Of a stretch of 45,743 nt of DNA, positions 300 to 29,975 are shown piece after piece. Position 1 is the first letter of the stretch, and every line of letters starts with the position of its first letter. This DNA is from a virus, in the UHGV virus genome UHGV-0129770; one strand, written 5' to 3'. A program made the position numbers and the translations under genes. A model generated the notes under the pieces. The model did no database searches, was not told where the DNA came from, and saw only the letters and a program-made list of their open reading frames with translations.

Positions 300-300
300 A

Positions 301-1277: not shown

Positions 1278-1278
1278 A

Positions 1279-1467
1279 TCACTCTCCTTTAGTGCGCAAG
1301 TGGTTTTTCCAGCGGTTTTGCGCCGCGCTGGGCTTTTTGCAAAAACCACAATCCATCATCCCGTAATATTTCATCAACCCCATCCGTCGGTTGCTGAGTC
1401 TCACCCACTGCCAGACGCCAGGAGCGTTTCTACGAACTAACAGAATCTTTGCTTTACGGTTTTTCAT
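1279..1467 (-). CDS. small basic hypothetical protein
   Basis: ORF track; ATGA start/stop overlap with an unlisted upstream 58-aa ORF (1464..1640), itself TAATG-coupled to the 1640..2434 gene. Confidence 0.3.
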   Translation of the reverse strand: MKNRKAKILLVRRNAPGVWQWVRLSNRRMGLMKYYGMMDCGFCKKPSAAQNRWKNHLRTKGE

Positions 1468-1639
1468 CGCTTTGCTCTCCTGCGTCTCTTTGCTGCTCGT
1501 CGTGCCGCTGCAATACCGGTATGGCGGCGCTTTGGTGCCGGGATGATGTTGTCAGCCATCAGGACATGTGGCTTTGCAATTAGCGCAGAAGCCCAAAAAC
1601 GAGTCGGGTACGGTAACAAGCCGATACATGCCACACGCA

Positions 1640-2434
1640 TTACTCACCTCCTTTGATGCGAATGCCTGCGGCGCGGATTGCAGCGATGACTTCAGAAACT
1701 TTGTATGCCATTACCGTTTGGTAATCATCGTGAAAATCTGTTCGATGAAGCATGCTGCTACGTTCCGGGAGCGATATTTCCCGAGCATCCAGTTCCTTAA
1801 CGCGTTCCTCCAGTTCGTAGACCCTGCATTGTTCTCTATCATCAATCAGATATAACCCAAGACATTCGCTTTCTACCCAACCGCCAAAATCATGATCGTA
1901 ACGCTCACATGAAAACTCACCGTCACCGTCCTTTGTTGGAATGGTGTAACTATCTAATGGGCCACCATATGTCGGCACATTTCCCAATGTTGGATGCTCA
2001 ATCCACATGAAAAATGCACGTCCGGTTATTGGGCAAATATCTGGCCGCCATTGGTTACGAACAGCCTTGGTTTCGGATAATTCTTCAGCGTGTTGTTTTA
2101 CTTCCTCAAGCTCAACTCTCAGCTTCCCTACCGTTAGCGCAATATCCTCGTTCTCCTGATCGCGGCGTTTTATGTATTGCTGGTTTCTTTCCCGTTCATC
2201 CAGTAGTGCCAAAGCAACCTTTGGGTTGAACGCGGCAACATAACGAGCGTTGTTCTCTGCATTTTTCTGTCCATCAAAGCCGGTCCATTTGATAACGTCT
2301 TCACATCGTTCATCACCGGGCGTGTGCACCGCATAAGTACCAGTATCCGTCGAAATAAATGCGACCCATTCGTCTGGTGTTGCCTTTTCTGCCGCCTCAC
2401 GCAGTACCTGATAGTCAATTGTCATTCTCGCCAT
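1640..2434 (-). CDS. Ea22-like modular phage protein, paralog 1
   Basis: ORF track; central coiled coil LTVGKLRVELEEVKQ and C-terminal ...IRAAGIRIKGGE tail shared with ORFs at 6878, 7516 and 8732. Confidence 0.5.
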   Translation of the reverse strand: MARMTIDYQVLREAAEKATPDEWVAFISTDTGTYAVHTPGDERCEDVIKWTGFDGQKNAENNARYVAAFNPKVALALLDERERNQQYIKRRDQENEDIALTVGKLRVELEEVKQHAEELSETKAVRNQWRPDICPITGRAFFMWIEHPTLGNVPTYGGPLDSYTIPTKDGDGEFSCERYDHDFGGWVESECLGLYLIDDREQCRVYELEERVKELDAREISLPERSSMLHRTDFHDDYQTVMAYKVSEVIAAIRAAGIRIKGGE

Positions 2435-3066
2435 CCTTCACAGTTGTAATCACGACAGCCTTCAAAATCATATGGGCTGTACTGCCAGGTGATTTTTCCG
2501 CAATGCGGACAATTCCAACGCACCTTCCCGCTTCGCGACTTCTTTCTTCTGTTCTGCTTTTTCAACCAGTCAGGCATGACCAAACCTGCGCCCTGAACCA
2601 TTGTTCTGCGGTTAAATTTATTGATATTGAACGTCCGGCGCTTTGCTGCATCAGCAATGGAAAATGGCAACCAAACTATTCCTGGTTCGTTTTTGTTGGC
2701 GACGCTAAAGATGGTCGCTTTACTGAAGTCATCTGTTGGCAATCCACCGTGTTGAAGCCAGTAAACATCGTTGCCGTTCCAGCTACCTTTTTTGTAGGCC
2801 ACATACGCAGTGCAATCTGACTCAATCAGGCTTTCTGTAGGGATGTACTGGCAATCAACGTGCCACACTGCCATTGCATCCACGCTATCCGCGCAAACAG
2901 GCTGATCGATATCTCGCCCACAATTCCAGGCTTTTTGGGCTTCTTCCAGCGTGTAAACATGAGCGCGATCGATATCAGAACTGTAACCATTGCCGTTATG
3001 GCAATGGAATGAGGCGTTATTACCCACAGTTTCACGCAAGCACATCAGGTAAAAGCGGTTATTCAC
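2422..3066 (-). CDS. hypothetical protein with C-terminal Cys-rich zinc-ribbon-like motif
   Basis: ORF track; C-terminus WNCPHCGK...CRDYNCEGW. Confidence 0.45.
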   Translation of the reverse strand: MNNRFYLMCLRETVGNNASFHCHNGNGYSSDIDRAHVYTLEEAQKAWNCGRDIDQPVCADSVDAMAVWHVDCQYIPTESLIESDCTAYVAYKKGSWNGNDVYWLQHGGLPTDDFSKATIFSVANKNEPGIVWLPFSIADAAKRRTFNINKFNRRTMVQGAGLVMPDWLKKQNRRKKSRSGKVRWNCPHCGKITWQYSPYDFEGCRDYNCEGWRE

Positions 3067-3343
3067 TGGTTGCCTCCGCTTCCCACGTTTTCAGACTTTC
3101 ACCACAGAACGGGCAAAATGAAACTCGAATAGGCGATTTAGAAAATTCACCAGACCGCAGCATGATCAGGTCTTGTGAATGAATTAATGCATGGTTATAG
3201 ATTTTGTATTTCAGCAGACCTTTTCGCGTCGTGTATTCAGCGTCATGCTCCAGGGATTGCGTCAACGCCGCGCACGGTTCTATCTTGTTGCCATTAATTT
3301 GGCATTTTGACTCACTCACTGGTTGCCCCCTGAATACGCTCAA
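3059..3343 (-). CDS. hypothetical protein
   Basis: ORF track; overlaps neighbours by a few nt in the operon. Confidence 0.35.
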   Translation of the reverse strand: MSVFRGQPVSESKCQINGNKIEPCAALTQSLEHDAEYTTRKGLLKYKIYNHALIHSQDLIMLRSGEFSKSPIRVSFCPFCGESLKTWEAEATSE

Positions 3344-4046
3344 ACTCGATTACCCACACCCAGGGATTAGCGTTCCAGCATTCTTCACCATAGATGGATT
3401 CCCACAGGCGCTGGAACGCAACCTTGGCCATTGCGAAATCTCCCTTGGGAGTTAGGAATGTTCCCGGGTGATCAGGAAGCAAACTTCCAGCAGGCTGAAC
3501 GCCCTCATCCCTTGCATCGCATTCGCTGATATCGTTCAACCGCTCAACGCGCACGTTGGTAATTTCCAACAGGATGCGTGATGCCCATCGCGGCATGTGA
3601 ATTGATGGACGCCACCCGCCATCAAACTTTTCATTCACAGTGTGAGGTTTCCAGTCGGCATCATCGGATATCGACCACAAACCGTAATCACCAGGCTTTT
3701 GCTCACAACTGGCCCGATAAATCCTTGCTGCGTTCTTCTCATCGCCACGACAAAGGTTGTCGTTCCAGTCCACACTGCAACCATCCTCATTGCCTAATAT
3801 CGCCCACGCCTCACGGACCCATATGCGATCACCAACGTTACCGAACGGGCATAAACCATGTTCAGGTGCATCCATAACGTGGGTATAGACACCATTGCGT
3901 TTCTTTGTCGGTTTACGGATAACTAGGCAGTTATCGGCCCTGACATTTTTTACAGGTCGGCGAGTCTGCGTCTTCCTTCCTTCGAGGATGGCCCTGACCA
4001 TCTCATCGTTAAAAATCATCCCACGTTCTTTCATTTTTTGATCCAC
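3312..4046 (-). CDS. hypothetical phage protein, possible ASCH-like domain
   Basis: N-terminal MIFNDEMVRAILEGRKTQTRR resembles the ASCH GxKxxxxR motif region; call from memory only. Confidence 0.35.
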   Translation of the reverse strand: MDQKMKERGMIFNDEMVRAILEGRKTQTRRPVKNVRADNCLVIRKPTKKRNGVYTHVMDAPEHGLCPFGNVGDRIWVREAWAILGNEDGCSVDWNDNLCRGDEKNAARIYRASCEQKPGDYGLWSISDDADWKPHTVNEKFDGGWRPSIHMPRWASRILLEITNVRVERLNDISECDARDEGVQPAGSLLPDHPGTFLTPKGDFAMAKVAFQRLWESIYGEECWNANPWVWVIEFERIQGATSE

Positions 4047-4050
4047 CTCA

Positions 4051-5046
4051 TCAGTTATTGAACGTGATCACTCCGCGCTCGATGGCGAAGTCAAAAAGCT
4101 GGTTAGCGGCTACGTAAAGGCGTATGCCATGTGCTTTTTCCCATGCCCGAACATCGTTTTCTGCGCTTCTGGCGCAGTCATCGCAAAGAGGAACAGCCCA
4201 GCGGTCGTGTTCGTTTAACGAGCGGGCGCGGTACATGAACGGGTGGTTAACTTTGCCACCGCATCCGATGCACGGACGAGAAACCACAAACCGGAGATAA
4301 GCCGGGCTTTTACCGAGGACCGCTTTTGGTCGGCGCATATAAAGCAGGCCGGAATCCTCATCTACAGACAGGTTGACGATCTGCTCTGCGGTTATGTCCA
4401 CCAGCTCGCGGGTACTGTGCTCCCAGGTGATATCTGATTCTTTCAGCGTACCGGTAGGGATTTCAGTTTTTGGCTGACAAAATGCAATGCGACCAGCTTC
4501 ATCAGGCAGTTCGTCTTTAAGATTCCGGCGAATGGCCCAAAAGGTGAGTTCAACCATGCTCAGATCGCGATCTGGCGGAAGTTTTAACTCGCTGGCAGCC
4601 CAGTTCATAATCCAGTTGGCGCGATTCCGTGACAGTTGGTCTTCCAGCTTGCCGTATCCCTTCATCATGTATTCCGCATCATGCTTCCAGCACAGGCGAA
4701 CGGCAGAACCGTTATAGAAATGGGTGGTTAGCTGGTGGCTGCAATCGCGCTTATCATGCGCCTGGCAATCGTGAATGTTGGTGCTAACCCAGTGAACGAG
4801 AGAATCCTCACCACCTAACGCGTTAAATACACGCTCACTTTGAAAAAAGGGTGCCAGTGACTGGTTGGCAACCAGTGAATAATTCAGGTCAACGACACCA
4901 TCAGGGGTGTTTTCAGCCTGTTCACGCGGCAATGGGGATATAAGAAAACGGCGTCCTGCGCCGATGTAATTGCTGGTGGGCTTATCTACAGGAAAGACAG
5001 CCACACCAGTTTCATTTACGACATATGGGGTGATTATTGCACTCAT
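4051..5046 (-). CDS. hypothetical protein with C-terminal Cys cluster (CIGCGG ... CDDC)
   Basis: ORF track; ATG at 5046..5044 checked in sequence; operator-like inverted repeat 45-70 nt upstream. Confidence 0.45.
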   Translation of the reverse strand: MSAIITPYVVNETGVAVFPVDKPTSNYIGAGRRFLISPLPREQAENTPDGVVDLNYSLVANQSLAPFFQSERVFNALGGEDSLVHWVSTNIHDCQAHDKRDCSHQLTTHFYNGSAVRLCWKHDAEYMMKGYGKLEDQLSRNRANWIMNWAASELKLPPDRDLSMVELTFWAIRRNLKDELPDEAGRIAFCQPKTEIPTGTLKESDITWEHSTRELVDITAEQIVNLSVDEDSGLLYMRRPKAVLGKSPAYLRFVVSRPCIGCGGKVNHPFMYRARSLNEHDRWAVPLCDDCARSAENDVRAWEKAHGIRLYVAANQLFDFAIERGVITFNN

Positions 5047-5089
5047 AATGCATACCGACTCTGTTTTGTTCCGATCGGTAAAATAATAT

Positions 5090-5117
5090 GTTAGAAAACT
5101 AAAATCAATGTTCTAAC
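5090..5117. promoter_or_regulatory. operator-like inverted repeat GTTAGA-N16-TCTAAC (site A)
   Basis: GTTAGA at 5090..5095, TCTAAC at 5112..5117, 16-nt spacer; same architecture at 10343 and 22242. Confidence 0.45.
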
Positions 5118-5143
5118 GTGATTTGAGTGCGTAAATGATTTGA

Positions 5144-5836
5144 TCAGACTTTAAGCTGCCCTCCCTTCACCTGCATTAGCGTCAGATTTCCGCAAAAAAC
5201 CGCGCCCGTGTCTATGTAGTGCTGATTCCAGTATGCTTTTGGTCTTCGTACCGGTGTGTGCCCAAAGATAAAGCGATCTGCGCCTGTGATTTCTCCACCA
5301 ATGCCATCTATCGAATCACCGACGCGACTGCGCGACCAGACAACATCAAAAAACGACACATCCTTACCGAACTGGTACTCTCCACCTGGATAGTCGGCAT
5401 GGGCTATAACGATAGTTTCATGCCCGGTGTTCAACTCAATGATATATGGCAGACGCTTTACCAGCTCCACCAGCGCCTTGGCTAATATTTCCTGATCAGT
5501 GCCCAGCATGAAGAACCATTGTCCGCCATTAATTAGCCAGTTATTCACGTTGCCATCAGGACTTAACGCATCAAGCATCAACCGCTCATGGTTCCCCATT
5601 ACTGCCCTGAACCAGGGCATCTGCAATAGTTCCAGACATTCGACATTTTCAGTACCGCGATCGATAAGGTCGCCAACCGATATCAGTAAATCCTGCGCCG
5701 GGTCAAAATCCACACGATGGAGTTCGGACATCAGTCTGGTGTAGCAACCATGCAGATCACCAACAACCCATATGTTTCTGTAGCCAGAACCATCAATACG
5801 GCTATATAAATTCACTTCATGCATAGTCTGGATCAT
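5144..5836 (-). CDS. serine/threonine protein phosphatase, lambda-type metallophosphoesterase
   Basis: Motifs GDLHG, GDLIDRG and GNHE; start set to ATG 5836..5834, which overlaps (ATGA) the stop of the upstream ORF. Confidence 0.85.
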
Positions 5837-6144
5837 GCGGCAACCTTCTCCCGCAGCCAGATACAAACTGGACCATCTTCAGTGTCATGAATAGAGCCAA
5901 CAAACCAGCCTTCACCCTCTGGTCGCTCCGGTTCCCAGGCGGCAATATCGGGACCAGCTGCGTCCAGATCAAAATCATCTTCATCCATACTGCGAATAGT
6001 CCACTGAAGATTATTTTCCTTCATCCAGGCGTCAAATTCCTCAGTGGAAATATATTCACGACCTGCGCAAAACTTCTCATACTCCGGATGTGTCCAGCAG
6101 CCATATTCATCACGTTCTACCGGCATTTCTTTAATGATGCTCAC
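5833..6144 (-). CDS. hypothetical acidic protein
   Basis: ORF track; GTG start at 6144 checked; coupled to the phosphatase gene. Confidence 0.4.
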
Positions 6145-6365
6145 TCTTCATCCTCCAAGTCGGCAACGGCCTCCATCACATCAGAACCGCGAATAACCTC
6201 AAAAGCACGGCAGGCCATTTCAAACACCTGTTGTTCTTGCGGATGCGGTGACTCCCAATACTTAAAACCAGGTCGATGCTCGTAACCCATCATGGAATAA
6301 AAATCGCCAGCAAGTTCAATCGCGGCATCAACAAGTTCGCGATTTGTCATCGTCTGTTCTGTCAT
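6141..6365 (-). CDS. hypothetical protein
   Basis: ORF track; operon context. Confidence 0.35.
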   Translation of the reverse strand: MTEQTMTNRELVDAAIELAGDFYSMMGYEHRPGFKYWESPHPQEQQVFEMACRAFEVIRGSDVMEAVADLEDEE

Positions 6366-6636
6366 TTGGTTTCTCCTGTCTGAACATCACTATCATCAGG
6401 TCGCCTTTTATCGCTATTCTGGCTGTTGTGCCTGGTTCAATGCGGCTAAGTTCAAATGCGTCATAGAACGCTTCTAATGCCTTCTGGCGTAGTTCCTGTT
6501 TGCGCCGTTTTTTCCACTCTTTTAGGAAAATGGAACCCAGCCATCGCCAGGTACGGGACATGATGTAAAGCCAACCGAGAAGTGCCAGACCGGTATTTAG
6601 GGCCGTATCGATCGTTATCGTGGTGTCGATATTCAC
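6328..6636 (-). CDS. hypothetical membrane-associated protein
   Basis: ORF track; hydrophobic stretch LALLGWLYIM; overlaps neighbour start, so its own start is uncertain. Confidence 0.35.
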   Translation of the reverse strand: MNIDTTITIDTALNTGLALLGWLYIMSRTWRWLGSIFLKEWKKRRKQELRQKALEAFYDAFELSRIEPGTTARIAIKGDLMIVMFRQEKPNDRTDDDKSRTC

Positions 6637-6881
6637 TGTGGTGGCTCCTGCTTTTCTGCCTTTAATACCATGCGAGAACCATCATCCAGCTCCCAATTAA
6701 TTTCACCGCCTTCAGCCATGACTAGATGCCAAACGAGTTGTGCGGCCTCGTTGGTTACATCACGACCGCGATCATTGCCGACACGACGTTTTGTTCCATC
6801 CCCTAAGTCACGCATTTTTGCCAACACGATGGTTTTTGATAGCGGTGAAAAACCAAGCTGTAGTCGTGCGGTATTACTCAC
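6633..6881 (-). CDS. hypothetical protein
   Basis: ORF track; operon context. Confidence 0.35.
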   Translation of the reverse strand: MSNTARLQLGFSPLSKTIVLAKMRDLGDGTKRRVGNDRGRDVTNEAAQLVWHLVMAEGGEINWELDDGSRMVLKAEKQEPPQ

Positions 6882-7519
6882 TGTTTGCCTCCTTTTCGAA
6901 GCTGGTCAGCGAACCTATCAGCTGCATCCGCGCAAGCAGAAGCAACGGAATCAAAAAATGGATCATCTCCGGTATCGCGCATCGTCAAAGCGAATGCCTC
7001 CACCCCTTGTGCCTGTATTTCTACAAGGTATGCCTTAGATGTAGTGCTTTTCGCCTCGCCTAATTCGTTATGAGCGATGTTCGCTATACATGCGATGTCT
7101 ATATCTGGATGATTAATTGGGCAATGGCTAAGAATTGCCTCAAGTGCTGCTTTTTTGCTTTGGCATTCCGCCACCATCGCCCCGCAATTGCTTTCATATT
7201 CGGCAATACGCTGTTTAGCAGCCTCCAGCTCAACACGCAGCTTCTCAAGCGTTAGAGCCATCTCCATGTTCTCTTCCAGCAGTTCAATCACATCAGGATC
7301 GCTATCATCAACTACTGTTATGCGCGATTTTTTGTAATGCTCGTCAGCATAAGTTCGTCCAGTTTTGAAGCATCCGTCGTCCTCCATGCCGGAACAGGCA
7401 TAAACAACATGTGATCCAGATATGCGCTGCATTGACATTTCCTCGCCACAAACAGAGCATTTAGGCGCTGGTTTCGGTGAAAAACGTTCACGTAACGTCT
7501 GATAGTAAAGCTCGCTCAC
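6878..7519 (-). CDS. Ea22-like modular phage protein, paralog 2 (N-terminal Cys4 ribbon)
   Basis: CSVCGEE...YACSG ribbon, coiled coil LTLEKLRVELEAAKQRIAE, C-terminal ADQLRKGGKQ. Confidence 0.5.
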   Translation of the reverse strand: MSELYYQTLRERFSPKPAPKCSVCGEEMSMQRISGSHVVYACSGMEDDGCFKTGRTYADEHYKKSRITVVDDSDPDVIELLEENMEMALTLEKLRVELEAAKQRIAEYESNCGAMVAECQSKKAALEAILSHCPINHPDIDIACIANIAHNELGEAKSTTSKAYLVEIQAQGVEAFALTMRDTGDDPFFDSVASACADAADRFADQLRKGGKQ

Positions 7520-8316
7520 TGGCTGCCTCCTTTGCGAAGCTGTTCAGCGATATCTTCGAGAACACCATCAGAGAATGAGCGGTCAAAATCGCCTTCCCGC
7601 GCATTAGCCATAAACTCAGTAGAGGTAAGAATCATCCGGGCAATATCCGCGGCGTTCTTCGCAGTATCATCAATAAAACCAGCTTCCCAGGCAGCCAGCA
7701 TTCTATTCGCCACAAAGTAAGCGCCCTCCTTGCGTGCTTCAGTCTTCACTTCATCCAGGAAAGTGTCGGTCGCAGGAGTGGTTTTTTGTGGTGATAGGGC
7801 GATACGAATTGTTTCAAGAGCTGGATCTATTTCCACTGTTGGCACCTTGATAAAACCAAGCTGCACGCCATTCATAATGAACGTGCGGCGATCCTCACAT
7901 ATCGCCTTCAGTCTCGCATTCTCCGCAGCCAGCGCCGCGCGATTACCCTCCAGCTCTGCAATGCGCTGTTTTGCGGTATCAAGTTCAATCGATAATTTTT
8001 CCAACTGCTCTTGATGCTTCTTGTATTCCTGATATGCGTGCCAGGACTGACCTTTGCGCACACTATCAGTAATATCAGTAATCTGTTCTGGTGTTAGCGT
8101 GGTCAGTGGCTGTGCTGGGAAAATCAGCACTTTCCCGGAATCCCAATCAAAACCAGCGTGAATTGACTGAACCTCAACTGAGGGTGTTGAACCAATGCTG
8201 CCAGGCGAATGAACAACGATCGTTACATCCATATCGCGACGATGGCTGTGGTTGTTGGACAAAATACGATTCAACAAAATACGATTCACCAACTCAGAAA
8301 ATTTGGAGAATTTCAT
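7516..8316 (-). CDS. Ea22-like modular phage protein, paralog 3
   Basis: C-terminal module TPATDTFLDEV...AEQLRKGGSQ is paralogous to the 8732..9220 product; start set to ATG 8316 (GAGG 6 nt upstream) rather than TTG 8328. Confidence 0.5.
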   Translation of the reverse strand: MKFSKFSELVNRILLNRILSNNHSHRRDMDVTIVVHSPGSIGSTPSVEVQSIHAGFDWDSGKVLIFPAQPLTTLTPEQITDITDSVRKGQSWHAYQEYKKHQEQLEKLSIELDTAKQRIAELEGNRAALAAENARLKAICEDRRTFIMNGVQLGFIKVPTVEIDPALETIRIALSPQKTTPATDTFLDEVKTEARKEGAYFVANRMLAAWEAGFIDDTAKNAADIARMILTSTEFMANAREGDFDRSFSDGVLEDIAEQLRKGGSQ

Positions 8317-15934: not shown

Positions 15935-17120
15935 TTTCCTGAAAAACCAGGACGGGCGCTATATCACTGACGGCCTGTCCTCTAAGGACTTCACGCGTTT
16001 ATTCGACCTTATCAGGAAAGAACAAACCCGTAAGCGCCGGCAAGCTCACCGGACGCTGACGCCAGGTAGACTGAGGAACAAATCCGCCGAAGATATTCTC
16101 AAGTTAGGGAAGAAAAAAGGCGGCACGTTCTTCACGCGAGACGACCTGAAAGGTTTCGAAAAGCTACGGAGTAAAACGCGCGAAAAATATGACAGCAAGA
16201 CGGCTGGCATCACATACGCCCAGCTGGTGGCATCCAGCCAGGCAATCGATATTAAGCGTGCAAATAACGCCGTGGATGACGGATCTGGTATCAAAAGAGC
16301 TACACCCGTATCTCTTCGCCACAATGTGATTAATATCCGCGTAGAAGCATCGGATATATCCGTCCACCAGCACCATATCGTCCGGATACGCTTTGAAGAA
16401 TGGGATCAGATGGTTGATGATATCGCAGAAGACGATAAATCAGCTCTCAAAATCACTAAATCACTGTGCGCCGGGCGAGTGTCTTTCGATTGTGACTGTG
16501 GTCGTCATCAATACTGGTATCGTTACATCGCCACTGCGGGTAACTTTGCCCTGGCACCGCCAAAAGAATACGCCTATCCAAAAGTTCGCAACCCGAAGCT
16601 GCAAGGCGTCGCCTGTAAACACGTGATCCACTCAATGACGCGGTTACAGTCCGCCAGTTGGCAAATGAGTATTGCTCGTGCGCTACAAAAGGCTGCAACG
16701 CAAATTGCATTTGGTGACGATCGCCGCCGTACAACCAAACACTTCTCAAAAGAAGACGAGAAGGAGTTTAATCGCAATCGTAGCAGTAAAACGAACGTTG
16801 ACGCTGCCAAGCGAGAATGGAGGCTCTATCAGAAGCGCCAGGCCGCTTTAAGCACAAAACTGGCAAAGGACAACGGCAAGATTGACAAGCTACGTGACCA
16901 ACTGACCAAGGCCAGAAAGTTGTCAGACGCACAGAAAAAACGGGCGGCAGCAAAAGAAGCGGCGTTGCAACGTGAGAAACAGAAAAACAAGGAGCTTCAG
17001 CAACGCCTGGCCGATCAGTTCGCACTGAAGAAGCAGGCGTTCATTGATGCGCTTGTCATGGCTGGAACACCACCAGCACAAGCTGAAAAAATGTTCATGG
17101 AGTATGTAAAAAAAGCATAA
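15927..17120 (+). CDS. SWIM-type zinc-finger protein with basic N-terminus and Lys/Ala-rich coiled-coil C-terminus
   Basis: CxCx(n)CxH pattern FDCDCGRH...GVACKHVIH; stop lies inside the convergent terminator stem. Confidence 0.5.
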   Translation: MPDFLKNQDGRYITDGLSSKDFTRLFDLIRKEQTRKRRQAHRTLTPGRLRNKSAEDILKLGKKKGGTFFTRDDLKGFEKLRSKTREKYDSKTAGITYAQLVASSQAIDIKRANNAVDDGSGIKRATPVSLRHNVINIRVEASDISVHQHHIVRIRFEEWDQMVDDIAEDDKSALKITKSLCAGRVSFDCDCGRHQYWYRYIATAGNFALAPPKEYAYPKVRNPKLQGVACKHVIHSMTRLQSASWQMSIARALQKAATQIAFGDDRRRTTKHFSKEDEKEFNRNRSSKTNVDAAKREWRLYQKRQAALSTKLAKDNGKIDKLRDQLTKARKLSDAQKKRAAAKEAALQREKQKNKELQQRLADQFALKKQAFIDALVMAGTPPAQAEKMFMEYVKKA

Positions 17121-17147
17121 ACCACACATAGCCTAGTAGTTTATGCT
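17114..17147. terminator. convergent hairpin between the SWIM operon and the AT-rich gene
   Basis: 9-bp stem AGCATAAAC / GTTTATGCT with a 16-nt loop, followed by a T-run. Confidence 0.4.
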
Positions 17148-17153
17148 GGGCTT

Positions 17154-17882
17154 TCATTTTTTTGAAAGATCAATTCCAGTATTATCAAACAAACTGGAAA
17201 TATCAGACACCAATTTATTAAAATGCTTGTCATCATTATAGAATGATGTGCTTTTTATAGCGACTATAAAATCACATAAATCTTGCGGAGATTCAATGCT
17301 AACCCCCTTATTTTTATATAGTTCAATAATACTGCCAACATCAGTATGCAATAGTTTTATCGCGCCACAAATTTCTCGCTGTTTCGTAACCAAGTCATTA
17401 AGTTTATTTTCATTTTCATCTAAGATTTGTTTTGAATATTTAGCGTCATTGGTTGCTTGATTTAACTTTGTTTTCTTTCTTTGCAATTCTATTCTTTTAT
17501 CATAATCAGCAACTTCATCTAAATATCTTATTTCAGTGTATAATTTACTTGTTAGCTTAGATATCTTCAGTGTGAGAACAGGAGCTAACACAGATGCAAA
17601 TACTCCATAAACAAATGGGATTACAACGTGATAAACCCACGGGGATACAATCCAATTATCAATGAACGGGACATTACCACCAACAGAAACAATAGATAAT
17701 GTATATAGGATGTCGTCCTTTGACTTTAATATAATTAAAATATCCTTCCAGTTAAAAATTAGAAATGAAATGACAACATATGCAAAAACCTTGTTAAATA
17801 TTTTATCTTTTATTATTTCAGAAAATGATTTTAGTTCTGTTTCATTTATAGACGGATTATCTTTAACTTTTTCTGACATCAT
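17154..17882 (-). CDS. AT-rich membrane protein with two TM helices and a coiled-coil tail; candidate abortive-infection or exclusion effector
   Basis: ORF track; markedly AT-rich by eye compared with flanks; TM segments VFAYVVISFLIFNW and VYHVVIPFVYGVFASVLAPVLTL; no recognisable family. Confidence 0.5.
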   Translation of the reverse strand: MMSEKVKDNPSINETELKSFSEIIKDKIFNKVFAYVVISFLIFNWKDILIILKSKDDILYTLSIVSVGGNVPFIDNWIVSPWVYHVVIPFVYGVFASVLAPVLTLKISKLTSKLYTEIRYLDEVADYDKRIELQRKKTKLNQATNDAKYSKQILDENENKLNDLVTKQREICGAIKLLHTDVGSIIELYKNKGVSIESPQDLCDFIVAIKSTSFYNDDKHFNKLVSDISSLFDNTGIDLSKK

Positions 17883-17903
17883 AGCTTATCCTGATTACTT
17901 TTA

Positions 17904-18104
17904 TTATGGATAGTTAAAAGATTCAACAGGTGATGGTGGTTGAATTGGGTAATGTTTCTTCTCGTACTCCTCAATGAGAAGACTCATAACCTCAAAGAAA
18001 TCACCTTCCGGAGTATTCATTTCCGGTTCGTTATCGAACATCGGTTCGACCGCACGCAGTGCGGCCTCATAATCTTGTTCTGTACGGATAGGTTTAATGT
18101 TCAT
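17904..18104 (-). pseudogene. truncated HigA-family antitoxin (N-terminal domain only, no HTH)
   Basis: IRTEQDYEAALRAVEPMF...PEGDFFEVMSLLIEEYEKKHYPI matches the N-terminal domain of HigA-type antitoxins as I recall them; ORF stops where the HTH should begin; no cognate toxin. Confidence 0.45.
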
Positions 18105-22283: not shown

Positions 22284-23189
22284 ATGAGATCAGTCGCTTT
22301 CAAAAATATCTTCATCTATCGTCTTTCACGCGAAGTTAGCTGGGATACTGCAGAAGTAAATGCAGCCCTTAGCAAGTTTGTGTTTACCCCATGCGGTTCT
22401 CAGGATATGGCTAAAGCTGGTTGGACCCCCGTTCTTGGCGACAACCTCACCCATGAATACCAGGGTTTTCTTCTGATGCAGCATAAACGAGAGGAAAAAA
22501 TCCTACCTTCTCAAGTACTCAAAGAAGAGTTACAGAAAAAAATCCTGAAACTTGAAGAAGAGCAAGACAGAAAGCTGAAGAAGACCGAAAAAGATTCGCT
22601 GAAGGATGAAGTGCTTCACTCTCTTCTTCCTCGCGCTTTCACGAGAAAATCAGTAGCTAAAATCCTGATAGACCGAAGCAATCATCTGGTTTTTGTCGAG
22701 GCCAGCAGTGCTAAAAAAGCAGAGGATCAGCTGGCTTTGTTACGGAAATCGCTTGGCAGCTTGCCCGTTGTCCCCTTCTCTCCGAAAGACCCATTAGAAC
22801 TGACCATCACTGGCTGGATTAAAAATGGCTTCCCGAACGGTTTCCGTGCCGGTGAGGAAGCGACCTTAAAAGCATTGCTTGATGATGGCGGCGCGGTCCG
22901 CTGCAAAAAAGTGGACCTGCTATCCGACGAGATCATGAGTCATATAGAAGCTGGTAAGGTTGCAACCACAGTTGCGGTTAACTGGCAAGACCGTGCATTT
23001 TTCAGACTGAATGACGATATGAGTATCAAGGCTTTGTCGTTCAGCGACGAATTGTACGACCAGAACGACGATATTGATCGAGAGGATGTTGCGCAACGAT
23101 TTGACGCTGACTTTATCCTGTTTACTGCTGAATTATCCGCGATGTTCACTTCGCTAGTGGAGGCCGTTGGTGGTGAAGCAGAACGTTAA
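22284..23189 (+). CDS. rdgC: recombination-associated protein RdgC homolog
   Basis: Long colinear matches to E. coli RdgC as I recall it: [87 protein letters not shown]. Confidence 0.85.
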
Positions 23190-25461
23190 CCTTAGATATG
23201 GTTCAGTTTGCAGTGGAATTGAAGCAGCGAGCATTGCCTGGGAACCGTTGGGTATGCGTCCGGCGTGGTTTGCTGAAATCGAGCCTTTTCCATCTGCCGT
23301 TCTTGCGCACCGCTGGCCCCATGTCGCCAACCTTGGCGATATGACAAAACTTGCCAAAAAAGTCCTGGCTGGGGAAATCGAATCCCCTGATGTGCTCGTC
23401 GGGGGAACACCTTGTCAGGCATTCAGTATCGCTGGATTACGTGGTGGGCTTGATGATGAGCGTGGCGCGCTAACTTTAAAGTATGTGGAGCTTGCAAATG
23501 CAATTGACGACAAACGGGCTGAGTCATTTCTCAAACCAGCCGTTATCGTCTGGGAAAATGTCCCAGGAGTCTTGTCATCGGCAGATAACGCCTTCGGATG
23601 TTTCCTTGCCGGATTGGCTGGAGAAGATGCGCCATTCGAACCAGGTGCTCGACCTGAATCACGAAAAAGTAACGCGTTCTGGCGGTGGGATGTCAAAACC
23701 AGTTGCCATGCTCCAAAGTGGCCGCAGTGTGGTTGTATTTATGGACCGCAGCGAAAAGTGGCCTGGAGAATCCTTGATGCCCAATACTTCGGAGTGGCAC
23801 AACGACGCCGACGCGTGTTTGTTGTCGCAAGTGCTCGAACAGACCTCGATCCCGCAACGATACTTTTTGAGTTCGAAGGCGTGCGCCGGAATATTGCGCC
23901 GAGCCGAAAAAAGAAGGAAATCGCTTCCGCCATTATTGCAAATGGCGCTGCAATCAGTGGCGAAAGCCTAAATCCATGCCTACACGCTGACATGCCCCCC
24001 GGTATGAAATCGACGAAAGCCGTAAACGCTTTCAGGATGGCGGCATTTGGGGAATATATTGACGATGAAACCGCATCGACAGTAAAGGCAAGAGACTTTA
24101 AAGATGCCACTGACCTTGCCGTTTTTAGCAGCACAGGAGCAGGTTTTTGGTCAGAGGGGCATGGTACATTGCGGGCGCGTGAGCAAGAAAGCCATGAGCA
24201 TCTTGTTACATTAGCTTTTCCTGAGCGTATGAGCGGTACACAACATGCTGCAACTAAGAATACTTCACCATCTCTAATGGCTCAAAATCCAACAGCCGTT
24301 TGCTATGAAGTAAGAAACGCAGAAGTAGCTGTCCGCCGTCTTACCCCTGTCGAATGTGAAAGGCTGCAAGGTTTTCCTGATGGGCATACGTTGATCCCTA
24401 CGGAAAAGCGTAAAACAATTTCCTCAGATGAACTGGCATACCTTCGCAATCACTATCCAGATTTAAGCGAAGAAGAAGCCGCGATGCTCGCTGCTGACGG
24501 GCCGCGTTACAAAGCGATTGGCAACAGCATGGCAGTTCCTGTTATGCAATGGATTGGGTGTCGCATTCTTGCGACTGTGGAAGCTAAACAGCCAAAAACA
24601 ATAAATACCATTACCTACACAAGAAAACTCCGGACTCCGGATGAATATGAACGTCCGATCTTCAAATGGGTAGGCGGTAAATTCTCAGAGTTGCCTACAG
24701 TGCTTGAGCATCTACCACACGGCAAGCGGTTAATAGAACCGTTCGTTGGTGGCGGTTCTGTATTTACGAATGCAGGATTTCGCCACAACCTGCTTAATGA
24801 TATTAACGGTGACCTGATTAACTTCTATCAGACATTGCAGCGAGAAGGACATTCGCTCGTCACGCTGTCATATAGTTTTTTCCAAAATTACAACAACGCT
24901 GACGCTTACCTCGAAGTGCGTGAGGCATTTAACAGAGGAAAGTATGACCAGCTACATCATGCTGCCGCCTTTTTGTACCTTAATCGGCACTGTTTTAATG
25001 GCGTAACGCGGTACAACCAAAATGGCGAGTTCAACGTGGGGTATGGCAAATACAAAGCGCCCTACTTCCCACATGCAGAGATGGAGGCATTTTTGGCTGA
25101 TGACGTACTCAAAAACACGTCCTTTGTATCAGGTGACTTTGCTGGCGTCATCGAGGCGGCTGGTGAAGGCGATGTGATTTTTTGCGATCCGCCGTATGAA
25201 CCGCTGCCGGATACAGAAGGGTTTACCAGTTATTCAGGAAATAGCTTCCGTTTCGACGAACAGAAACGGCTGGTATCTCTATTGGTGGAAGCCCACCAGC
25301 GCGGCGCTAAGGTAGTGATTACAAATAGTGGTGCGCCAAACATCCGTGAACTATATGAAGGAAACGGGTTTAAAGTACATCATATGGCAGCCAGACGGTC
25401 GGTTTCCTGCAAGGCGTCAACACGTGTAGTTGCTAACGATATAATTGCAATAATGAAGTAA
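23167..25461 (+). CDS. bifunctional DNA methyltransferase (N-terminal C5-cytosine domain, C-terminal Dam-like N6-adenine domain)
   Basis: C5 motifs [27 protein letters not shown]; Dam-like [21 protein letters not shown]; no adjacent restriction endonuclease. Confidence 0.8.
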
Positions 25462-25464
25462 AAA

Positions 25465-25492
25465 ACGCCGCAGTAGCGGCGTTTACTTTTTT
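25465..25492. terminator. bidirectional intrinsic terminator shared by the methyltransferase and glnS
   Basis: ACGCCGC-agta-GCGGCGT with an A-run upstream and a T-run downstream. Confidence 0.7.
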
Positions 25493-25509
25493 ATGTGGCG
25501 AAATACCTA

Positions 25510-27171
25510 TTAACCTAACTTCGCCCAAGTATCACGCAGCCCAACGGTGCGGTTAAATACCGGTTTTTCCGCCGTGGAATGGCGGCTGTCGAGGCAGAAA
25601 TAACCTTCACGCTCAAACTGGAATGCTTTACCCGCTACCGCTTCTTTCAGCGACGGTTCAGCAAAGCCCTGTTTGATCACCAGCGATTCCGGGTTAATCA
25701 CCGACAGGAAATCATCCGCAGCACCTGGGTTAGGCACGCTGAACAGACGGTCATACAAACGGATTTCAACCGGCAGCGCATGTGCCGCGCTCACCCAGTG
25801 AATAACACCTTTGACTTTACGACCATCTGCCGGATCTTTGCTTAAGGTGTCGGCGTCATAAGTACAGAAGATGGTGGTGATATTGCCTTCGGCATCTTTC
25901 TCCACGCGTTCTGCCTTAATGACGTAAGCATTACGCAGACGCACTTCTTTACCCAGCACCAGACGTTTGTACTGCTTGTTAGCTTCTTCGCGGAAATCGG
26001 CGCGATCGATCCAAATCTCACCGCTAAACGGCACCTGACGGCTGCCCATTTCCGGTTTGTTCGGATGGTTCGGCATGGTAACCATTTCGCCTTCGCCCTG
26101 ATAGTTTTCGATAACCAGTTTCACCGGATCGATAACCGCCATTGCGCGCGGCGCATTTTCGTTGAGATCTTCACGGATGCAGGATTCCAGCGACGCCATC
26201 TCAATGGTGTTGTCCTGCTTGGTCACGCCGATGCGTTTGCAGAACTCACGAATAGAAGCCGCAGTGTAACCACGACGACGCAGACCGGAAATGGTCGGCA
26301 TACGCGGGTCATCCCAGCCTTCAACGTGCTTGTCGGTCACCAGCAGGTTCAGCTTACGCTTGGACATCACAGTGTATTCCAGATTCAGGCGCGAGAATTC
26401 GTACTGGCGCGGGTGAACAGGAATGGTGATGTTGTCCAGCACCCAGTCGTACAGGCGACGGTTGTCCTGGAACTCAAGCGTACACAGAGAGTGCGTAATA
26501 CCTTCCAGCGCATCGCTGATGCAGTGGGTGAAGTCGTACATCGGGTAGATGCACCACTTGTTGCCAGTCTGGTGGTGTTCAGCAAATTTAATGCGGTACA
26601 GCACCGGATCGCGCATCACGATAAACGGCGAAGCCATGTCGATTTTCGCACGCAGGCAGGCTTTACCTTCTTCAAAACCACCGGCACGCATTTTTTCGAA
26701 CAGCGCCAGGTTCTCTTCAACGCTGCGGTCGCGGTACGGGCTGTTTTTACCCGGTTGCGTCAGGGTGCCGCGATATTCGCGGATCTGTTCCGGCGTCAGT
26801 TCATCAACGTACGCCAGGCCTTTATTGATCAGTTCGATCGCATAGGCGTGGAGCTGATCAAAATAATCGGAGGAGTAACGGACGTTACCAGACCAGTGAA
26901 AACCTAACCACTCTACGTCGTTTTTGATCGACTCAACATACTCGATATCTTCTTTTACCGGGTTAGTGTCGTCGAAACGCAGGTTGCACTGGCCTTTATA
27001 GTCCTGGGCGATCCCGAAGTTCAGGCAGATAGATTTCGCATGGCCAATATGCAGATAGCCATTCGGCTCCGGCGGGAAACGGGTGTGTACTGTGGTGTGC
27101 TTACCACTGGCCAGATCTTCATCGATGATCTGACGAATAAAGTTAGTCGGGCGGGCTTCTGCCTCACTCAT
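25510..27171 (-). CDS. glnS: glutaminyl-tRNA synthetase
   Basis: 553 aa; class I HIGH (PNGYLHIGH) and KMSKS-type (VMSKR) motifs; matches enterobacterial GlnS almost residue for residue from memory; C-terminus here ends ...TWAKLG. Confidence 0.9.
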
Positions 27172-27319
27172 TGTGGATTCCTCAAAGCGTAAACAACGTA
27201 TAACGGCGTATGATCTTATAAGCAGAATAGGCTGACAACCACTAGTTGGTTAGAAATTACTTTCTATAGTTGTTTCAATAATGAGCTTTTTCATCAAGCC
27301 CACTTCTGCTCATAAGTAA

Positions 27320-27400
27320 ACCAGTGCTAAATGGTACACAATTGGCACCAAAAAGGATGTAAAGGTGCACCAAATCGGTGCTACATTGGTACACCTTTGG
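27320..27400. repeat. cluster of short GGTACAC/GGTGCACC-type repeats downstream of the ParG-like gene (approximate bounds)
   Basis: aaatGGTACACaattGGCACCaaaaaggatgtaaaGGTGCACCaaatcGGTGCtacatTGGTACACc. Confidence 0.35.
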
Positions 27401-27439: not shown

Positions 27440-27724
27440 TTATTTTGCTTCCTCAGACTCCGCTAACATGAGGATTGCATGCCGAATCAAGTTCAATTTG
27501 CTGCGGTTCAGTTTTTTGCTTAAATCATCGAGTACGCCGTACTCATATTCATTAAAGCTCACGCGTATGGATTTAAAGTCACGCGGCGCATCTTTATCTG
27601 GAGTTTGAGTTGCAGCCTCAACGCCCGGCACCAAATCGGCTTTAATGGCGAACTCTTCAATGCGGCGCTCTAGTTCAGGGTCTTTTACAGCTTGTGCATT
27701 CACTGGCTCACGGCGCTTAATCAC
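27440..27724 (-). CDS. ParG-like small centromere-binding protein (ribbon-helix-helix type)
   Basis: 94 aa, immediately downstream of and overlapping the ParA gene; C-terminal region SIRVSFNEYEYGVLDDLSKKLNRSKLNLIRHAILMLAE. Confidence 0.5.
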   Translation of the reverse strand: MIKRREPVNAQAVKDPELERRIEEFAIKADLVPGVEAATQTPDKDAPRDFKSIRVSFNEYEYGVLDDLSKKLNRSKLNLIRHAILMLAESEEAK

Positions 27725-28353
27725 GATAACAACTCCTTAATCAACATCTGGATCTCGCCCTTTGCTTTCCCGTTGTCCATTTCAACAACCCCCTTCCCTT
27801 CTGCCATGCAGTCACGATAAATCTTACGGTCACGGACGACGGTTTTCAGGAGTTCAAGTTGCGGGTATTCAGCAAGATATTCCCTTGCCTCATTGGCTTC
27901 GTTAACAACCGGGTTGGATGGTGCCATAGTCAGCATGGCATACGCCTTAAGTTTAGGGTTGAAATCCATCGCCTCAGCTATAACCTCAACAAGGTGCGGT
28001 AGAGTATCCAGATCCGGCTGGGAAGGACGGAACGGCACCAGAAGCACATCTGCCGCTGTCATGCCTGTACGCATCTCACGACTGTCGCGACCAGCAGTAT
28101 CGACGACAACGTACTCGTAACGTTTATCCAGATCGAGCAGCGTCTCACGAATATTATCGAACTTCTGCACGCAGTGAATGACAGGGGCAACCTCACCTGC
28201 ATTACGGTCTGACGCCCATCGAGCTGCCGTTCCCTGCTTATCAGCATCAATCAAGACGACATCTTTGTTTTTTCGGGCCAGCTCGGCACAAATATTGACG
28301 CTGGTGGTTGACTTGCCACAGCCTCCCTTTTGACTTGCTACCAAGATAATCAT
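27721..28353 (-). CDS. parA: ParA-family partition ATPase (small, deviant Walker A)
   Basis: N-terminus MIILVASQKGGCGKST is a deviant Walker A box; 210 aa. Confidence 0.8.
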   Translation of the reverse strand: MIILVASQKGGCGKSTTSVNICAELARKNKDVVLIDADKQGTAARWASDRNAGEVAPVIHCVQKFDNIRETLLDLDKRYEYVVVDTAGRDSREMRTGMTAADVLLVPFRPSQPDLDTLPHLVEVIAEAMDFNPKLKAYAMLTMAPSNPVVNEANEAREYLAEYPQLELLKTVVRDRKIYRDCMAEGKGVVEMDNGKAKGEIQMLIKELLS

Positions 28354-28642: not shown

Positions 28643-28987
28643 TCAATCAGGTAGAGAGTCAGCCAGATTGCGCGCCGACGCGCTTTTGGCAACAACTTGC
28701 TCCTTCACTGGCTCAATGGAGGCAGGGCGCTCCTCAACCGCAGCTGGTAGTTCCAGGAAGGATGCCAGCATTTTTCGGATCAGCTCCGGGTTATTGTCTT
28801 CGGTCAGCAGGGAAGCCAGTAATCCTGGAAGCCTGCTATCGACTTCTCCCAGCGCAAGCCCTGCCAACAATGCGGTTCTTGCCATATCGCTATGTTTTTT
28901 TATCTTCTCGCTCGCCGCCTTTTCATTGGCATAAGCCTCTGGGCGAAGATAAATCATCACTTTCTTACGTTCCTGAGACATGGACAT
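28643..28987 (-). CDS. parR: ParR/StbB-like centromere-binding partition protein
   Basis: MARTALLAGLALGEVDSRLPGLLASLL resembles R1 ParR (RLNRAALTAGLALYRQD...) from memory; directly downstream of parM. Confidence 0.65.
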   Translation of the reverse strand: MSMSQERKKVMIYLRPEAYANEKAASEKIKKHSDMARTALLAGLALGEVDSRLPGLLASLLTEDNNPELIRKMLASFLELPAAVEERPASIEPVKEQVVAKSASARNLADSLPD

Positions 28988-28994
28988 TACCTCG

Positions 28995-29951
28995 TTAACC
29001 GATTGCTTTCAGGCCATGAACAAGAGCAAGTTGCGGGTCATCCGCCACGAAGAAACGGTCATCACGAATATTAACTTGCTCGCGAATTGCATCTGCCACC
29101 AGCGGTGCGCCACCACCGATCACCATGACATGCGTATATCCTTTAAAGTCGCCAATCACATCAAGAACGCGGGTACGCAGACGGTCAATGCTTGCGGCAA
29201 TGGCCTTTTTCACATCACCAATCGCTGATGGGTCATTGATATTGTCGTTCAGATAATCTTCATCGTGGCGGTTAATAATGAGCTGATCGACATTGTAATT
29301 TGACGTTTCGGTATTGGCTCTGGCAAGTGCTTGCCTTACTTCCCTGGTAACCAGAGAGACGCCAAGATTCGAATCGCCAAAAACACGGGAAACTGCCGTC
29401 ATTTGCCCGGCGACCATTGAAACATCAAGGGTAGTTCCACCCAAATCGACGATAAGAACAGAATGGGCAGGGTTCAGATTGTCGCACAGGCCAATTCCTG
29501 CCGGAATAGACTCCGGGCGTACCGTAACTTTCTTAATCGTGAACACATTGCCTTTATTCAGCGTGACGGGGCGCATAAGGCTGGCTTTCTTGCGCTCGAT
29601 GTTATCGAGATTGTATTGCGCGTCGTCGTCGTAAAACTCCGCCAGAGGCAGCGTGACCACAATTTCTACTTCCTGCGGCTCAATGCCACTTGTCAGCAGG
29701 GCATGGTGAACAGCCAGGACGTTAAGCGGGCTGTATTGCCATTCCACGTTATTCGTCGGCAGAACATCTGGCGAGATCAAATCATACGAATACTTTTCGT
29801 CGTCAATGACATAGTTAAACGGCTTGCCCGCACCAAATGTTGCTGACCATCCGCGCTTAAAGCTGTTAGGGCTGATGTGAGTGCGAGTTTCCCCGTCGTG
29901 CTCCCACAGCATTTTGATATTGGTTGAACCATCATCGATAAAAATGCGCAT
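28995..29951 (-). CDS. parM: ParM/StbA actin-like partition ATPase
   Basis: MRIFIDDGSTNIK, ISPNSFKR, NVLAVHHALLTSG, IVDLGGTTLDVS, YGDSSLGVSLVT and GYTHVMVIGGGA match R1 ParM as I recall it; start set to ATG 29951 (GGAG SD) rather than GTG 29975. Confidence 0.85.
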   Translation of the reverse strand: MRIFIDDGSTNIKMLWEHDGETRTHISPNSFKRGWSATFGAGKPFNYVIDDEKYSYDLISPDVLPTNNVEWQYSPLNVLAVHHALLTSGIEPQEVEIVVTLPLAEFYDDDAQYNLDNIERKKASLMRPVTLNKGNVFTIKKVTVRPESIPAGIGLCDNLNPAHSVLIVDLGGTTLDVSMVAGQMTAVSRVFGDSNLGVSLVTREVRQALARANTETSNYNVDQLIINRHDEDYLNDNINDPSAIGDVKKAIAASIDRLRTRVLDVIGDFKGYTHVMVIGGGAPLVADAIREQVNIRDDRFFVADDPQLALVHGLKAIG

Positions 29952-29975
29952 CTTCTTGCTCCACTTCTGAGACAC

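Follow-up and report, generated by a model that had tools for sequence, protein, structure and literature searches.

The stretch of DNA analysed here (referred to below as the window: 45,743 nucleotides of the virus genome UHGV-0129770) contains, amid the genes of a mobile element, an open reading frame whose product is almost indistinguishable from the glutaminyl-tRNA synthetase of Escherichia coli, and it raises the question of how long ago an essential host gene of translation entered such an element, and what has kept it there in so host-like a form. The window belongs to a phage-plasmid of the D6-like (P1-family) kind, on which the host gene glnS is present as an extra, intact copy. That glnS is a cargo gene of such elements is already known: its annotation dates back to 2017-2018, and its published discussion to 2019. 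In the annotation of phage D6 (MF356679) the gene is described as 'orf62, glutaminyl-tRNA synthetase, similar to E. coli GlnS'. A report from 2019 (PMC6799933) stated that all D6-like genomes carry glnS, termed the gene a moron, and proposed that it serves either a gain in host fitness or the maintenance of the plasmid, by analogy with the cysS gene of pBT1; it credits Gilcrease & Casjens (Virology 2018) with the first observation. Our literature searches found no later functional work on the glnS gene of D6-like elements. The contribution of the present analysis is the evidence that the capture is old, and that the gene has been kept E. coli-like by repeated recombination with its chromosomal counterpart.

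The nature of the element is evident from comparisons both of the glnS region and of its surroundings. Escherichia phage D6 (MF356679) matches a 2.2-kb region containing the gene at 96.5% identity, and about 100 non-mobilizable PLSDB plasmids of ~90 kb from E. coli, Shigella and Salmonella match it at 96-98%; matching plasmids were found in 70 of 5,426 closed E. coli genomes. Positions 1-25000 of the window match D6-like plasmids at 96-98% identity over 77-86% of the length, and the window and D6 have a common gene order (StbA/StbB, ParA, orf61, glnS, dmt, rdgC, baseplate). Its relatives are ~90-kb plasmids, closed and circular, that belong to type rep_cluster_1704; the window itself is a 45.7-kb fragment. 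An initial sequence-only reading of the locus had held its context to be non-chromosomal, and the match to D6 and to about 100 D6-like plasmids bears this out; the native chromosomal flanks of glnS, which would speak against it, were not found.

The immediate neighbours of glnS are likewise those that had been described from the letters alone (Table 1). A fused, P1 Dmt-like DNA methyltransferase gene converges on glnS, with one bidirectional stem-loop between the two, and ParA-type and ParM/StbB genes lie upstream. The ParA ATPase scored 165.2 bits against NF041546, the cut-off of that profile being 180, and the 94-aa ORF, which had been labelled ParG, gave no Pfam or NCBIfam match. The ParM protein varies at 1-3 residues among elements. 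A simple consensus scan of the minus strand, from the ParA and 94-aa ORFs to glnS, found no terminator-like site, and read-through from the ParA operon into glnS is therefore possible. One further record, pSa1423-160k (89.4% identity, glnS unannotated), was considered as a divergent or decayed copy, and was set aside as error-rich and uninformative on account of its 130 gap openings in 3.8 kb.

Table 1. Features of the glnS locus, in positions of the window
Feature	Position	Strand	Remarks
P1 Dmt-like DNA methyltransferase, fused C5-cytosine + D12 N6-adenine, 764 aa	23167..25461	+	PF00145, PF02086
Captured chromosomal unit (promoter, CDS, terminator)	25460..27258	-	BLAST boundaries and alignments
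Native glnS intrinsic terminator, AAACGCCGC-TACT-GCGGCGTTTTTT	25460..25484	-	Bidirectional; conserved in Enterobacteriaceae
glnS CDS	25510..27171	-	553-aa glutaminyl-tRNA synthetase; TIGR00440, 1067.6 bits
Chromosome-type (putative gene-conversion) tract of the window copy, minimum extent	26044..27085	-	CDS nt 87-1128
5' edge of the unit, 87-nt leader + promoter	27172..27258	-	15% diverged from E. coli in 21/21 plasmids
Native glnS sigma-70 promoter, TTGTCA, 17 nt, GATCAT	27210..27238	-	Promoter scan
Dam site GATC	27212..27215		Within the -10 hexamer of the glnS promoter
94-aa ORF	27440..27724	-	Same strand as glnS, upstream
ParA-type partition ATPase	27721..28353	-	Pfam AAA_31, CbiA, MipZ
StbB	28643..28987	glnS strand	Upstream of glnS
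ParM/StbA	28995..29975	glnS strand	Upstream of glnS

The product of the gene is, by its sequence, a canonical GlnRS, a class Ib aminoacyl-tRNA synthetase, and the plasmid protein is predicted to charge tRNA-Gln. Its reading frame of 553 codons begins with ATG and ends in ...RDTWAKLG. The protein matches the NCBIfam glnS equivalog profile TIGR00440 far above the cut-off (425.8 bits), with residues 28-551 aligned to positions 1-524 of the 524 in the profile, and its Pfam domains (PF00749 at residues 28-337, PF03950 at 340-439 and PF20974 at 456-528) correspond to the class I E/Q catalytic domain and to both anticodon-binding domains. The class I motifs are intact (HIGH at residues 41-44, VMSKR at 268-272), and the best matches in the PDB are the E. 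coli GlnRS structures 1o0b, 1gts and 1qtq, aligned across residues 1-553. The protein differs from K-12 GlnS in three respects only (D510E, V552L and the absence of E554), and at the DNA level BLAST gives 97.9% identity to K-12 over 25514..27258. The assignment to the class I GlnRS family and the near-identity to enterobacterial GlnS, both asserted in the sequence-only reading, are thus confirmed, and the gene is no divergent paralogue. Within the assembly collection, 131 blocks encode exactly this 553-aa protein, and contigs of ~90 kb account for most of them. No tRNA genes were found within the window.

The captured segment includes the transcription signals of the host gene as well as its coding sequence. 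Similarity to K-12 spans from 27258 (87 nt before the ATG) to 25514, 4 nt short of the CDS end, and the hexamers of the plasmid promoter, with the Dam site that lies in the -10 element, are identical to those of chromosomal E. coli glnS. As stated in PMC12369378, which cites Plumbridge & Soll 1987, the glnS promoter is repressed by Dam, and expression is raised about 2-fold in a dam deletion. At the other end of the unit, the terminator motif occurs once in the window (0 expected from shuffles), and a pattern search found it once in each fetched locus, always downstream of glnS. It is located 15-35 nt past the glnS stop in the chromosomes of Salmonella, Citrobacter, Enterobacter, Kluyvera, Atlantibacter, Cedecea, Buttiauxella and Pseudescherichia, and the same terminator is found 70-200 nt further downstream in those of E. 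coli and E. ruysiae, where one or two REP-like palindromes separate it from the stop codon; the corresponding spacer of the plasmid unit is without a REP. A donor outside Escherichia, which the match of the plasmid terminator to Salmonella and Citrobacter chromosomes and its apparent absence from E. coli had suggested, was rejected once the same terminator was recognized behind the REPs of E. coli and E. ruysiae.

These observations also define the 3' boundary of the insertion. The final two bases of the terminator T-run are the complement of the TAA stop codon of the methyltransferase gene, and the true 3' junction is the end of that T-run, which overlaps the methyltransferase stop codon. A recombination junction had previously been placed in the last codons of glnS, on the strength of a C-terminal difference from the chromosomal protein, and this placement is not supported; the difference is real, but it amounts to three point substitutions (AAG-TTA-GGT-TAA-TAG, encoding KLG and two stops, in the plasmid versus AAG-GTA-GGT-GAG-TAA, encoding KVGE and one stop, in the chromosome), and the native terminator is retained 3' of the coding sequence. 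The glnS product of a divergent D6-like plasmid from E. fergusonii ends in KVEG, and the terminator and downstream junction there are the same.

The description of the gene as a near-identical captured copy implies a recent capture, and codon-level divergence had been suggested as a means of dating it. The distribution of differences among copies indicates otherwise. In a distance matrix, plasmid glnS copies interleave with chromosomal alleles and form no separate clade: over 1650 sites, the window copy shows 20-25 differences from four E. coli chromosomal alleles but 33-54 from most sister plasmids, and as few as 12 sites separate the copy of pAPEC201603 from an STEC allele. A map of the informative sites resolves these distances into blocks. 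One leader haplotype is common to all plasmids, and many of them carry a 'plasmid haplotype' over roughly nt 100-400, while the copies of the window and of pAPEC201603 are of chromosome type over most of the CDS. In pAPEC201603 the patch corresponds to an STEC-type allele, with plasmid-type sequence on both sides; nt ~1020-1572 are K-12-like in D6 and in pYU07-18_89, a Salmonella plasmid; and an IMG/VR contig (L004) carries another chromosomal allele over nt ~213-972. Within the window, all 24 of the 24 plasmid-signature sites at CDS nt 87-1128 have the chromosomal allele, and this tract is flanked by plasmid-type sites at -100..-1 and at nt 1530. A best-segment chi-square with permutation of sites gave 0/1000 for each of the window, pAPEC201603, D6 and L004.

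The edges of the unit behave differently from its interior. Across the leader (-87..-1), the divergence of 15% seen in 21 of 21 plasmids compares with 1.8% among chromosomes, and no plasmid of the 21 shows visible conversion of this 5' edge; in bins across the CDS, the mean distance to the nearest chromosomal allele is 0.3-4.4%. Diverged edges combined with an interior that has been homogenised patch by patch are the trace expected of conversion between dispersed repeats, and recurrent gene conversion from chromosomal glnS into the plasmid copies is well supported by these patterns. The identity of the window copy to E. coli derives largely from its conversion tract, and near-identity is therefore no sign of recent capture.

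A better indication of age is provided by the sequence that conversion appears to have spared. Only 35 records among the closed E. coli genomes match the unconverted 5' tract (431 nt) at 99% or more; by about the 93rd of 5,500 ranked records the matches are chromosomes, at 95.1% identity, and a divergence of ~5% separates the unconverted haplotype from each of the sampled E. coli chromosomes. The synonymous divergence (dS) of this tract from K-12 is 0.22, as compared with 0.25 between K-12 and E. ruysiae. Among the Escherichia chromosomes compared (those of E. coli and E. ruysiae), this divergence points to an old capture, at a depth about that of the split between Escherichia species. The recent acquisition that had been implied is a misleading reading, in view both of this codon-level measure and of the divergence of 5-15% at the edges and in unconverted sister copies.

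In principle, a mosaic in the window, or in draft or IMG/VR contigs, might be a consensus artefact of two copies that are 97-99% identical, and the argument for conversion rests mainly on closed plasmids, on the D6 virion genome and on plasmids hosted by Salmonella. The last of these are particularly informative, since Salmonella chromosomal glnS is only 84.7% identical to plasmid glnS by BLAST: a K-12-like 3' half is common to D6 and to a Salmonella-resident plasmid whose host gene is that distant, and the mosaic is therefore no assembly artefact there. The Salmonella-resident plasmids carry E. coli-type alleles and E. coli-derived tracts, and no Salmonella-type tract was found in them.

The number of captures can be judged from the flanks. 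All D6-type copies have the same flanks and one plasmid-type leader in common. The E. fergusonii lineage has the proximal flanks in common with them (the terminator and methyltransferase end on the 3' side, and on the 5' side from about -95); its leader is mostly plasmid-type, and the sequence further upstream differs. The common flanks and leader haplotype argue for a single capture.

The reading that we favour, with a probability of roughly 0.8, is that the element carries a functional second copy of host glnS, as a cargo gene ('moron') within its maintenance region, which derives from an old and single capture and whose interior has repeatedly been converted. An ancestral D6-like element would have acquired, in one insertion, a complete chromosomal unit comprising the promoter, coding sequence and native terminator, with the small ParA partition operon on one side of it and the dmt-type methyltransferase stop codon on the other. 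The encoded GlnRS, judged by its sequence, would charge tRNA-Gln; more copies of the element would mean a higher dose of glnS; and glnS expression would increase when the GATC in its promoter is under-methylated, as on replicating DNA. Patches of the resident chromosomal glnS would meanwhile overwrite the interior of the gene via homologous recombination, leaving the copies mosaic. We infer that the gene is expressed, that its product is enzymatically active and that it confers a selective benefit, most likely an added capacity to charge Gln-tRNA while the element replicates, lytically or as a plasmid, or else a mild dependence of the host.

A more far-reaching proposal, which we regard as unlikely, is that the 1.7-kb glnS unit might act as a permanent homology bridge between D6-like phage-plasmids and the Escherichia chromosome. 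The elements would then both receive and transport alleles of an essential gene, sequence tracts would be carried among E. coli lineages and into Salmonella, and occasional cointegrates would be formed at glnS, of which the hybrid contigs described below are a hint; a dependence of the kind described for pBT1 might take the place of such a role or be added to it.

That dependence can also be proposed as the principal reason for the presence of the gene, by analogy with pBT1 cysS: plasmid GlnRS would become the main source of the enzyme, chromosomal glnS would be down-regulated, and loss of the plasmid would be penalised. The same takeover was proposed for D6-like glnS in PMC6799933, the gene is located within the partition and maintenance region, and on a conjugative Citrobacter plasmid cysS and glnS adjoin each other near a HigB toxin gene. 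We regard it as quite unlikely, although the condition of the host gene bears on a transcriptional takeover only indirectly. Hosts retain their own glnS, the point on which the sequence-only reading had called for a check: 5,428 chromosomal places were found with a glnS query in 5,426 closed E. coli genomes, in addition to 81 on plasmids, and essentially all of these genomes keep the chromosomal gene. The closed strain 2015C-3108 has one intact gene on the chromosome (554 aa) and another on the plasmid (553 aa), with 50 differences between them in 1650 nt, and the promoter and CDS of the chromosomal gene are identical to a common STEC allele found in the absence of the plasmid. Furthermore, D6-like elements already carry toxin-antitoxin systems, and no regulatory mechanism for the silencing of host glnS is apparent in the sequence.

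The opposite extreme, that glnS is a neutral hitch-hiker with no selected function of its own, which is held intact by continual conversion from a selected chromosomal copy, is very unlikely. Conversion tracts are indeed frequent, and take up most of the CDS in some copies. The ratio dN/dS is 0.01-0.03 for pairs of plasmid copies and for plasmid-chromosome pairs, and the plasmid values (0.02-0.03) are about three times those among chromosomes (0.007-0.009). Although these low ratios suggest that plasmid glnS is under purifying selection, part of the signal could have been imported with chromosome-derived tracts, and would not then reflect selection on the plasmid copy. Against neutrality, even in the plasmid-specific tract that was never converted, 18 synonymous changes stand beside 3 nonsynonymous ones, with a dN/dS of 0.04, and the promoter hexamers and terminator are conserved amid a leader that has diverged by 15%. 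The open reading frame is intact in 22 of 22 fetched plasmid copies, and of 119 PLSDB records, 60 were listed, nearly all with an intact glnS CDS in their annotation; the intact copies include those of Salmonella-resident plasmids, whose host gene is so distant and in which Salmonella-type tracts are lacking. The retention of glnS across all D6-like genomes, as reported in PMC6799933, also speaks against a gene without function.

Hybrid contigs that join chromosome and plasmid were observed in three draft assemblies (L117, L122 and L123; accessions GCA_025946005.1, GCA_025796155.1 and GCA_053137195.1). In each, nagB-nagE is followed by the 553-aa glnS and then by dmt-rdgC-baseplate, with switch points within glnS that differ among the three, and one of the contigs continues into plasmid sequence for 111 kb, more than the length of the element. 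On the basis of these crossovers inside the gene, and of that length, it could be argued that glnS serves as portable homology, for a RecA-dependent single crossover at the chromosomal locus that would provide an alternative form of lysogeny or an Hfr-like mobilisation. We consider this extremely unlikely: a query for the hybrid junction reached a coverage of at least 80% in 0 of the 5,426 closed E. coli genomes, and a 1.7-kb repeat of 97-99% identity on a roughly single-copy plasmid is of a kind that can be mis-threaded by assemblers. The hybrid contigs are probably assembler paths threaded through the repeat that chromosome and plasmid have in common. Finally, the notion that the window is itself chromosomal or an assembly chimera, with glnS as the host's own gene, can be dismissed, for while its CDS interior is chromosome-type and hybrid contigs do occur in drafts, D6 backbone is present on both flanks, the leader at -100..-1 and the 3' end (nt 1530, the KLG terminus and the REP-less spacer) are plasmid-type, and the D6 virion genome and about 100 closed plasmids are arranged alike.

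An old, single capture with a repeatedly converted interior has consequences beyond this locus. An essential gene of translation that is carried on a mobile element bears on plasmid retention, on gene dosage and on the interplay of phage with host translation. Since concerted evolution erases divergence everywhere except at the edges of such a unit, identity to a host gene is unfit for dating its capture. The 1.7-kb repeat probably gives rise to chimeric chromosome-plasmid contigs in draft assemblies, for which users of such assemblies should exercise caution. In addition, a Dam-repressed promoter that lies beside the element's own Dam-type methyltransferase gene offers a testable route to expression coupled to replication.

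Several known systems can be compared with the one described here. The closest are glnS of D6 (orf62; MF356679 / NC_050154) and of the plasmids pYU39_89 and pYU07-18_89, in which both the gene and its insertion site are as in the window. The D6 gene has the KLG ending and the terminator in common with the window copy across their 2.2 kb of 96.5% identity; the two differ in that, at CDS nt 87-1128, the window is chromosome-type whereas D6 has the plasmid haplotype, followed by a K-12-like 3' half, and in that the methyltransferase is a single 764-aa ORF in the window but is annotated as two ORFs in the D6 record. Chromosomal E. coli glnS (b0680, in the order nagE-glnS-chiP) has the same promoter hexamers with GATC in the -10 element, the same terminator stem and the same enzyme (with three amino acid differences), but it ends in KVGE, its leader differs by 15%, one or two REP elements precede its terminator, and its flanking genes are unlike those of the plasmid. 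GlnRS homologues of megaphages and uncultured phages, some of the records being unverified metagenomic contigs, are only 50-58% identical and do not resemble host alleles.

Plasmid-borne synthetase genes of two other kinds are also known. The Citrobacter cronae plasmid p.S175-1.4 (NZ_CP060445) has likewise captured a complete glnS unit, from the leader to a terminator-like stem-loop; this unit was captured independently, has about 90% identity to the chromosomal glnS of Citrobacter, and is located on a conjugative MOBP/MPF_I backbone rather than a phage-plasmid, where it adjoins cysS and HigB. The cysS gene of pBT1, from Salmonella Typhimurium D23580, is similarly an essential class I aminoacyl-tRNA synthetase gene that is carried on a plasmid beside a chromosomal copy. 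It is 79% identical to the host gene at the nucleotide level, and its functional takeover has been shown experimentally (Canals et al. 2019, PMC6333337). Unlike pBT1 cysS, the glnS gene of D6-like elements is 97-99% identical to that of its host, with which, to judge from its mosaic copies, it recombines.

The stop-to-terminator spacer of chromosomal glnS is strain-variable in Escherichia, ranging from approximately 67 nucleotides (with one REP-like palindrome) to approximately 200 nucleotides (with two), while in other enterobacterial genera it spans 15 to 35 nucleotides and is free of REP elements. A divergent D6-like lineage is represented by an E. fergusonii plasmid (NZ_CP099330.1, 1351-3285). 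Its glnS gene encodes 554 amino acids, ends in KVEG followed by the stop codon, and is separated by a 10-nucleotide spacer (GCAATACATT) from the same terminator found in the window; its upstream flank is unlike that of the window, and 9 nucleotides of the spacer (GCAATACAT) are common to the chromosomal spacer of C. murliniae.

An E. coli D6-like plasmid, pTB423 (NZ_CP034790.1), was also found to carry glnS. That gene differs at 69 to 95 of 1650 sites from each of the other copies and from each of the chromosomes with which it was compared, and is the most divergent of the E. coli-hosted glnS genes examined. It may represent an ancestral allele that has remained largely unconverted; alternatively, the same divergence may reflect tracts acquired from an unsampled Escherichia lineage.

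In three hybrid contigs (L117, L122 and L123), chromosomal nagB-nagE is followed by a glnS whose 3' end is plasmid-type, and the D6 backbone comes next (dmt, the methyltransferase gene convergent on glnS, followed by rdgC and baseplate genes); the position of the switch within glnS varies from contig to contig. Real cointegrates are very improbable; because the nagE-glnS-dmt junction was found in none of 5,426 closed E. coli genomes at a coverage of at least 80% of the query, these contigs are probably assembly chimeras formed through the 1.7-kb repeat. In a separate Salmonella 'plasmid' record of 169 kb that contains a D6-like region (pSa1423-160k, NZ_MK356558.1), a decayed glnS was considered and disfavoured, as the record looks error-rich, with fragmented ORFs and 130 gap openings in a 3.8-kb alignment.

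Coordinates of the features and records compared
Feature	Record	Coordinates	Strand
Methyltransferase, one 764-aa ORF, TTG start	window	23167-25461	+
Repeat region between the 94-aa ORF and glnS	window	27318-27400	
glnS	pTB423 (L109)	1501-3162	
cysS	p.S175-1.4 (L107)	3331-4722	
glnS	p.S175-1.4 (L107)	5488-7155	
Chromosomal Escherichia glnS spacer	L002	5759-5981	
Chromosomal Escherichia glnS spacer	L114	3166-3257	
Chromosomal Escherichia glnS spacer	L115	3166-3389	
Chromosomal Escherichia glnS spacer	L027	3166-3388	
Hybrid contig	L117 (GCA_025946005.1)	1-7662	
Hybrid contig	L122 (GCA_025796155.1)	1-7662	
Hybrid contig	L123 (GCA_053137195.1)	1-7662	
GlnRS homologues	IMG/VR L010, L014-L018		
GlnRS homologues	phage records LR745206, LR756502, CAKLQF020000030		

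Within the window, the intergenic region upstream of glnS, which is plasmid-specific rather than chromosomal DNA, contains two direct repeat units of approximately 28 nucleotides (AAACCAGTGCTAAATGGTACACAATTGG and AAATCGGTGCTACATTGGTACACCTTTGG) at a spacing of 54-55 base pairs, as well as a 13-nucleotide inverted repeat (27361-27373 and 27386-27398). These repeats may constitute a candidate centromere-like or operator site for the small ParA system. Elsewhere in the backbone, the composition profile falls sharply to a GC fraction of 0.325 at positions 17001-18000 (versus approximately 0.47 window-wide), indicating a putative low-GC insert or foreign segment.

The methyltransferase combines an N-terminal C5 domain with a C-terminal D12 Dam-like domain, and its gene is flagged as partial or as a pseudogene on some RefSeq plasmids; the phage D6 record displays two ORFs in place of this single one (orf64, 226 amino acids, and orf63, 301 amino acids). 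GlnRS homologues with 48-85% identity to that of the window, which may be genuine phage genes or contaminating host sequence, are found on further viral or metagenomic contigs, including a 159-kb viral contig and megaphage records of approximately 635 kb. A 98-kb conjugative plasmid of Citrobacter cronae (p.S175-1.4, NZ_CP060445.1; MOBP, MPF_I) carries both cysS and glnS, separated by approximately 770 base pairs, with a HigB toxin gene close by. Its glnS shares approximately 90% identity with Citrobacter chromosomal glnS from position -69 to a terminator-like stem-loop inclusive and is a whole glnS unit that was captured independently. This capture recalls the pBT1 cysS of Salmonella Typhimurium D23580, itself a plasmid copy of an essential aminoacyl-tRNA synthetase gene (PMC6333337).
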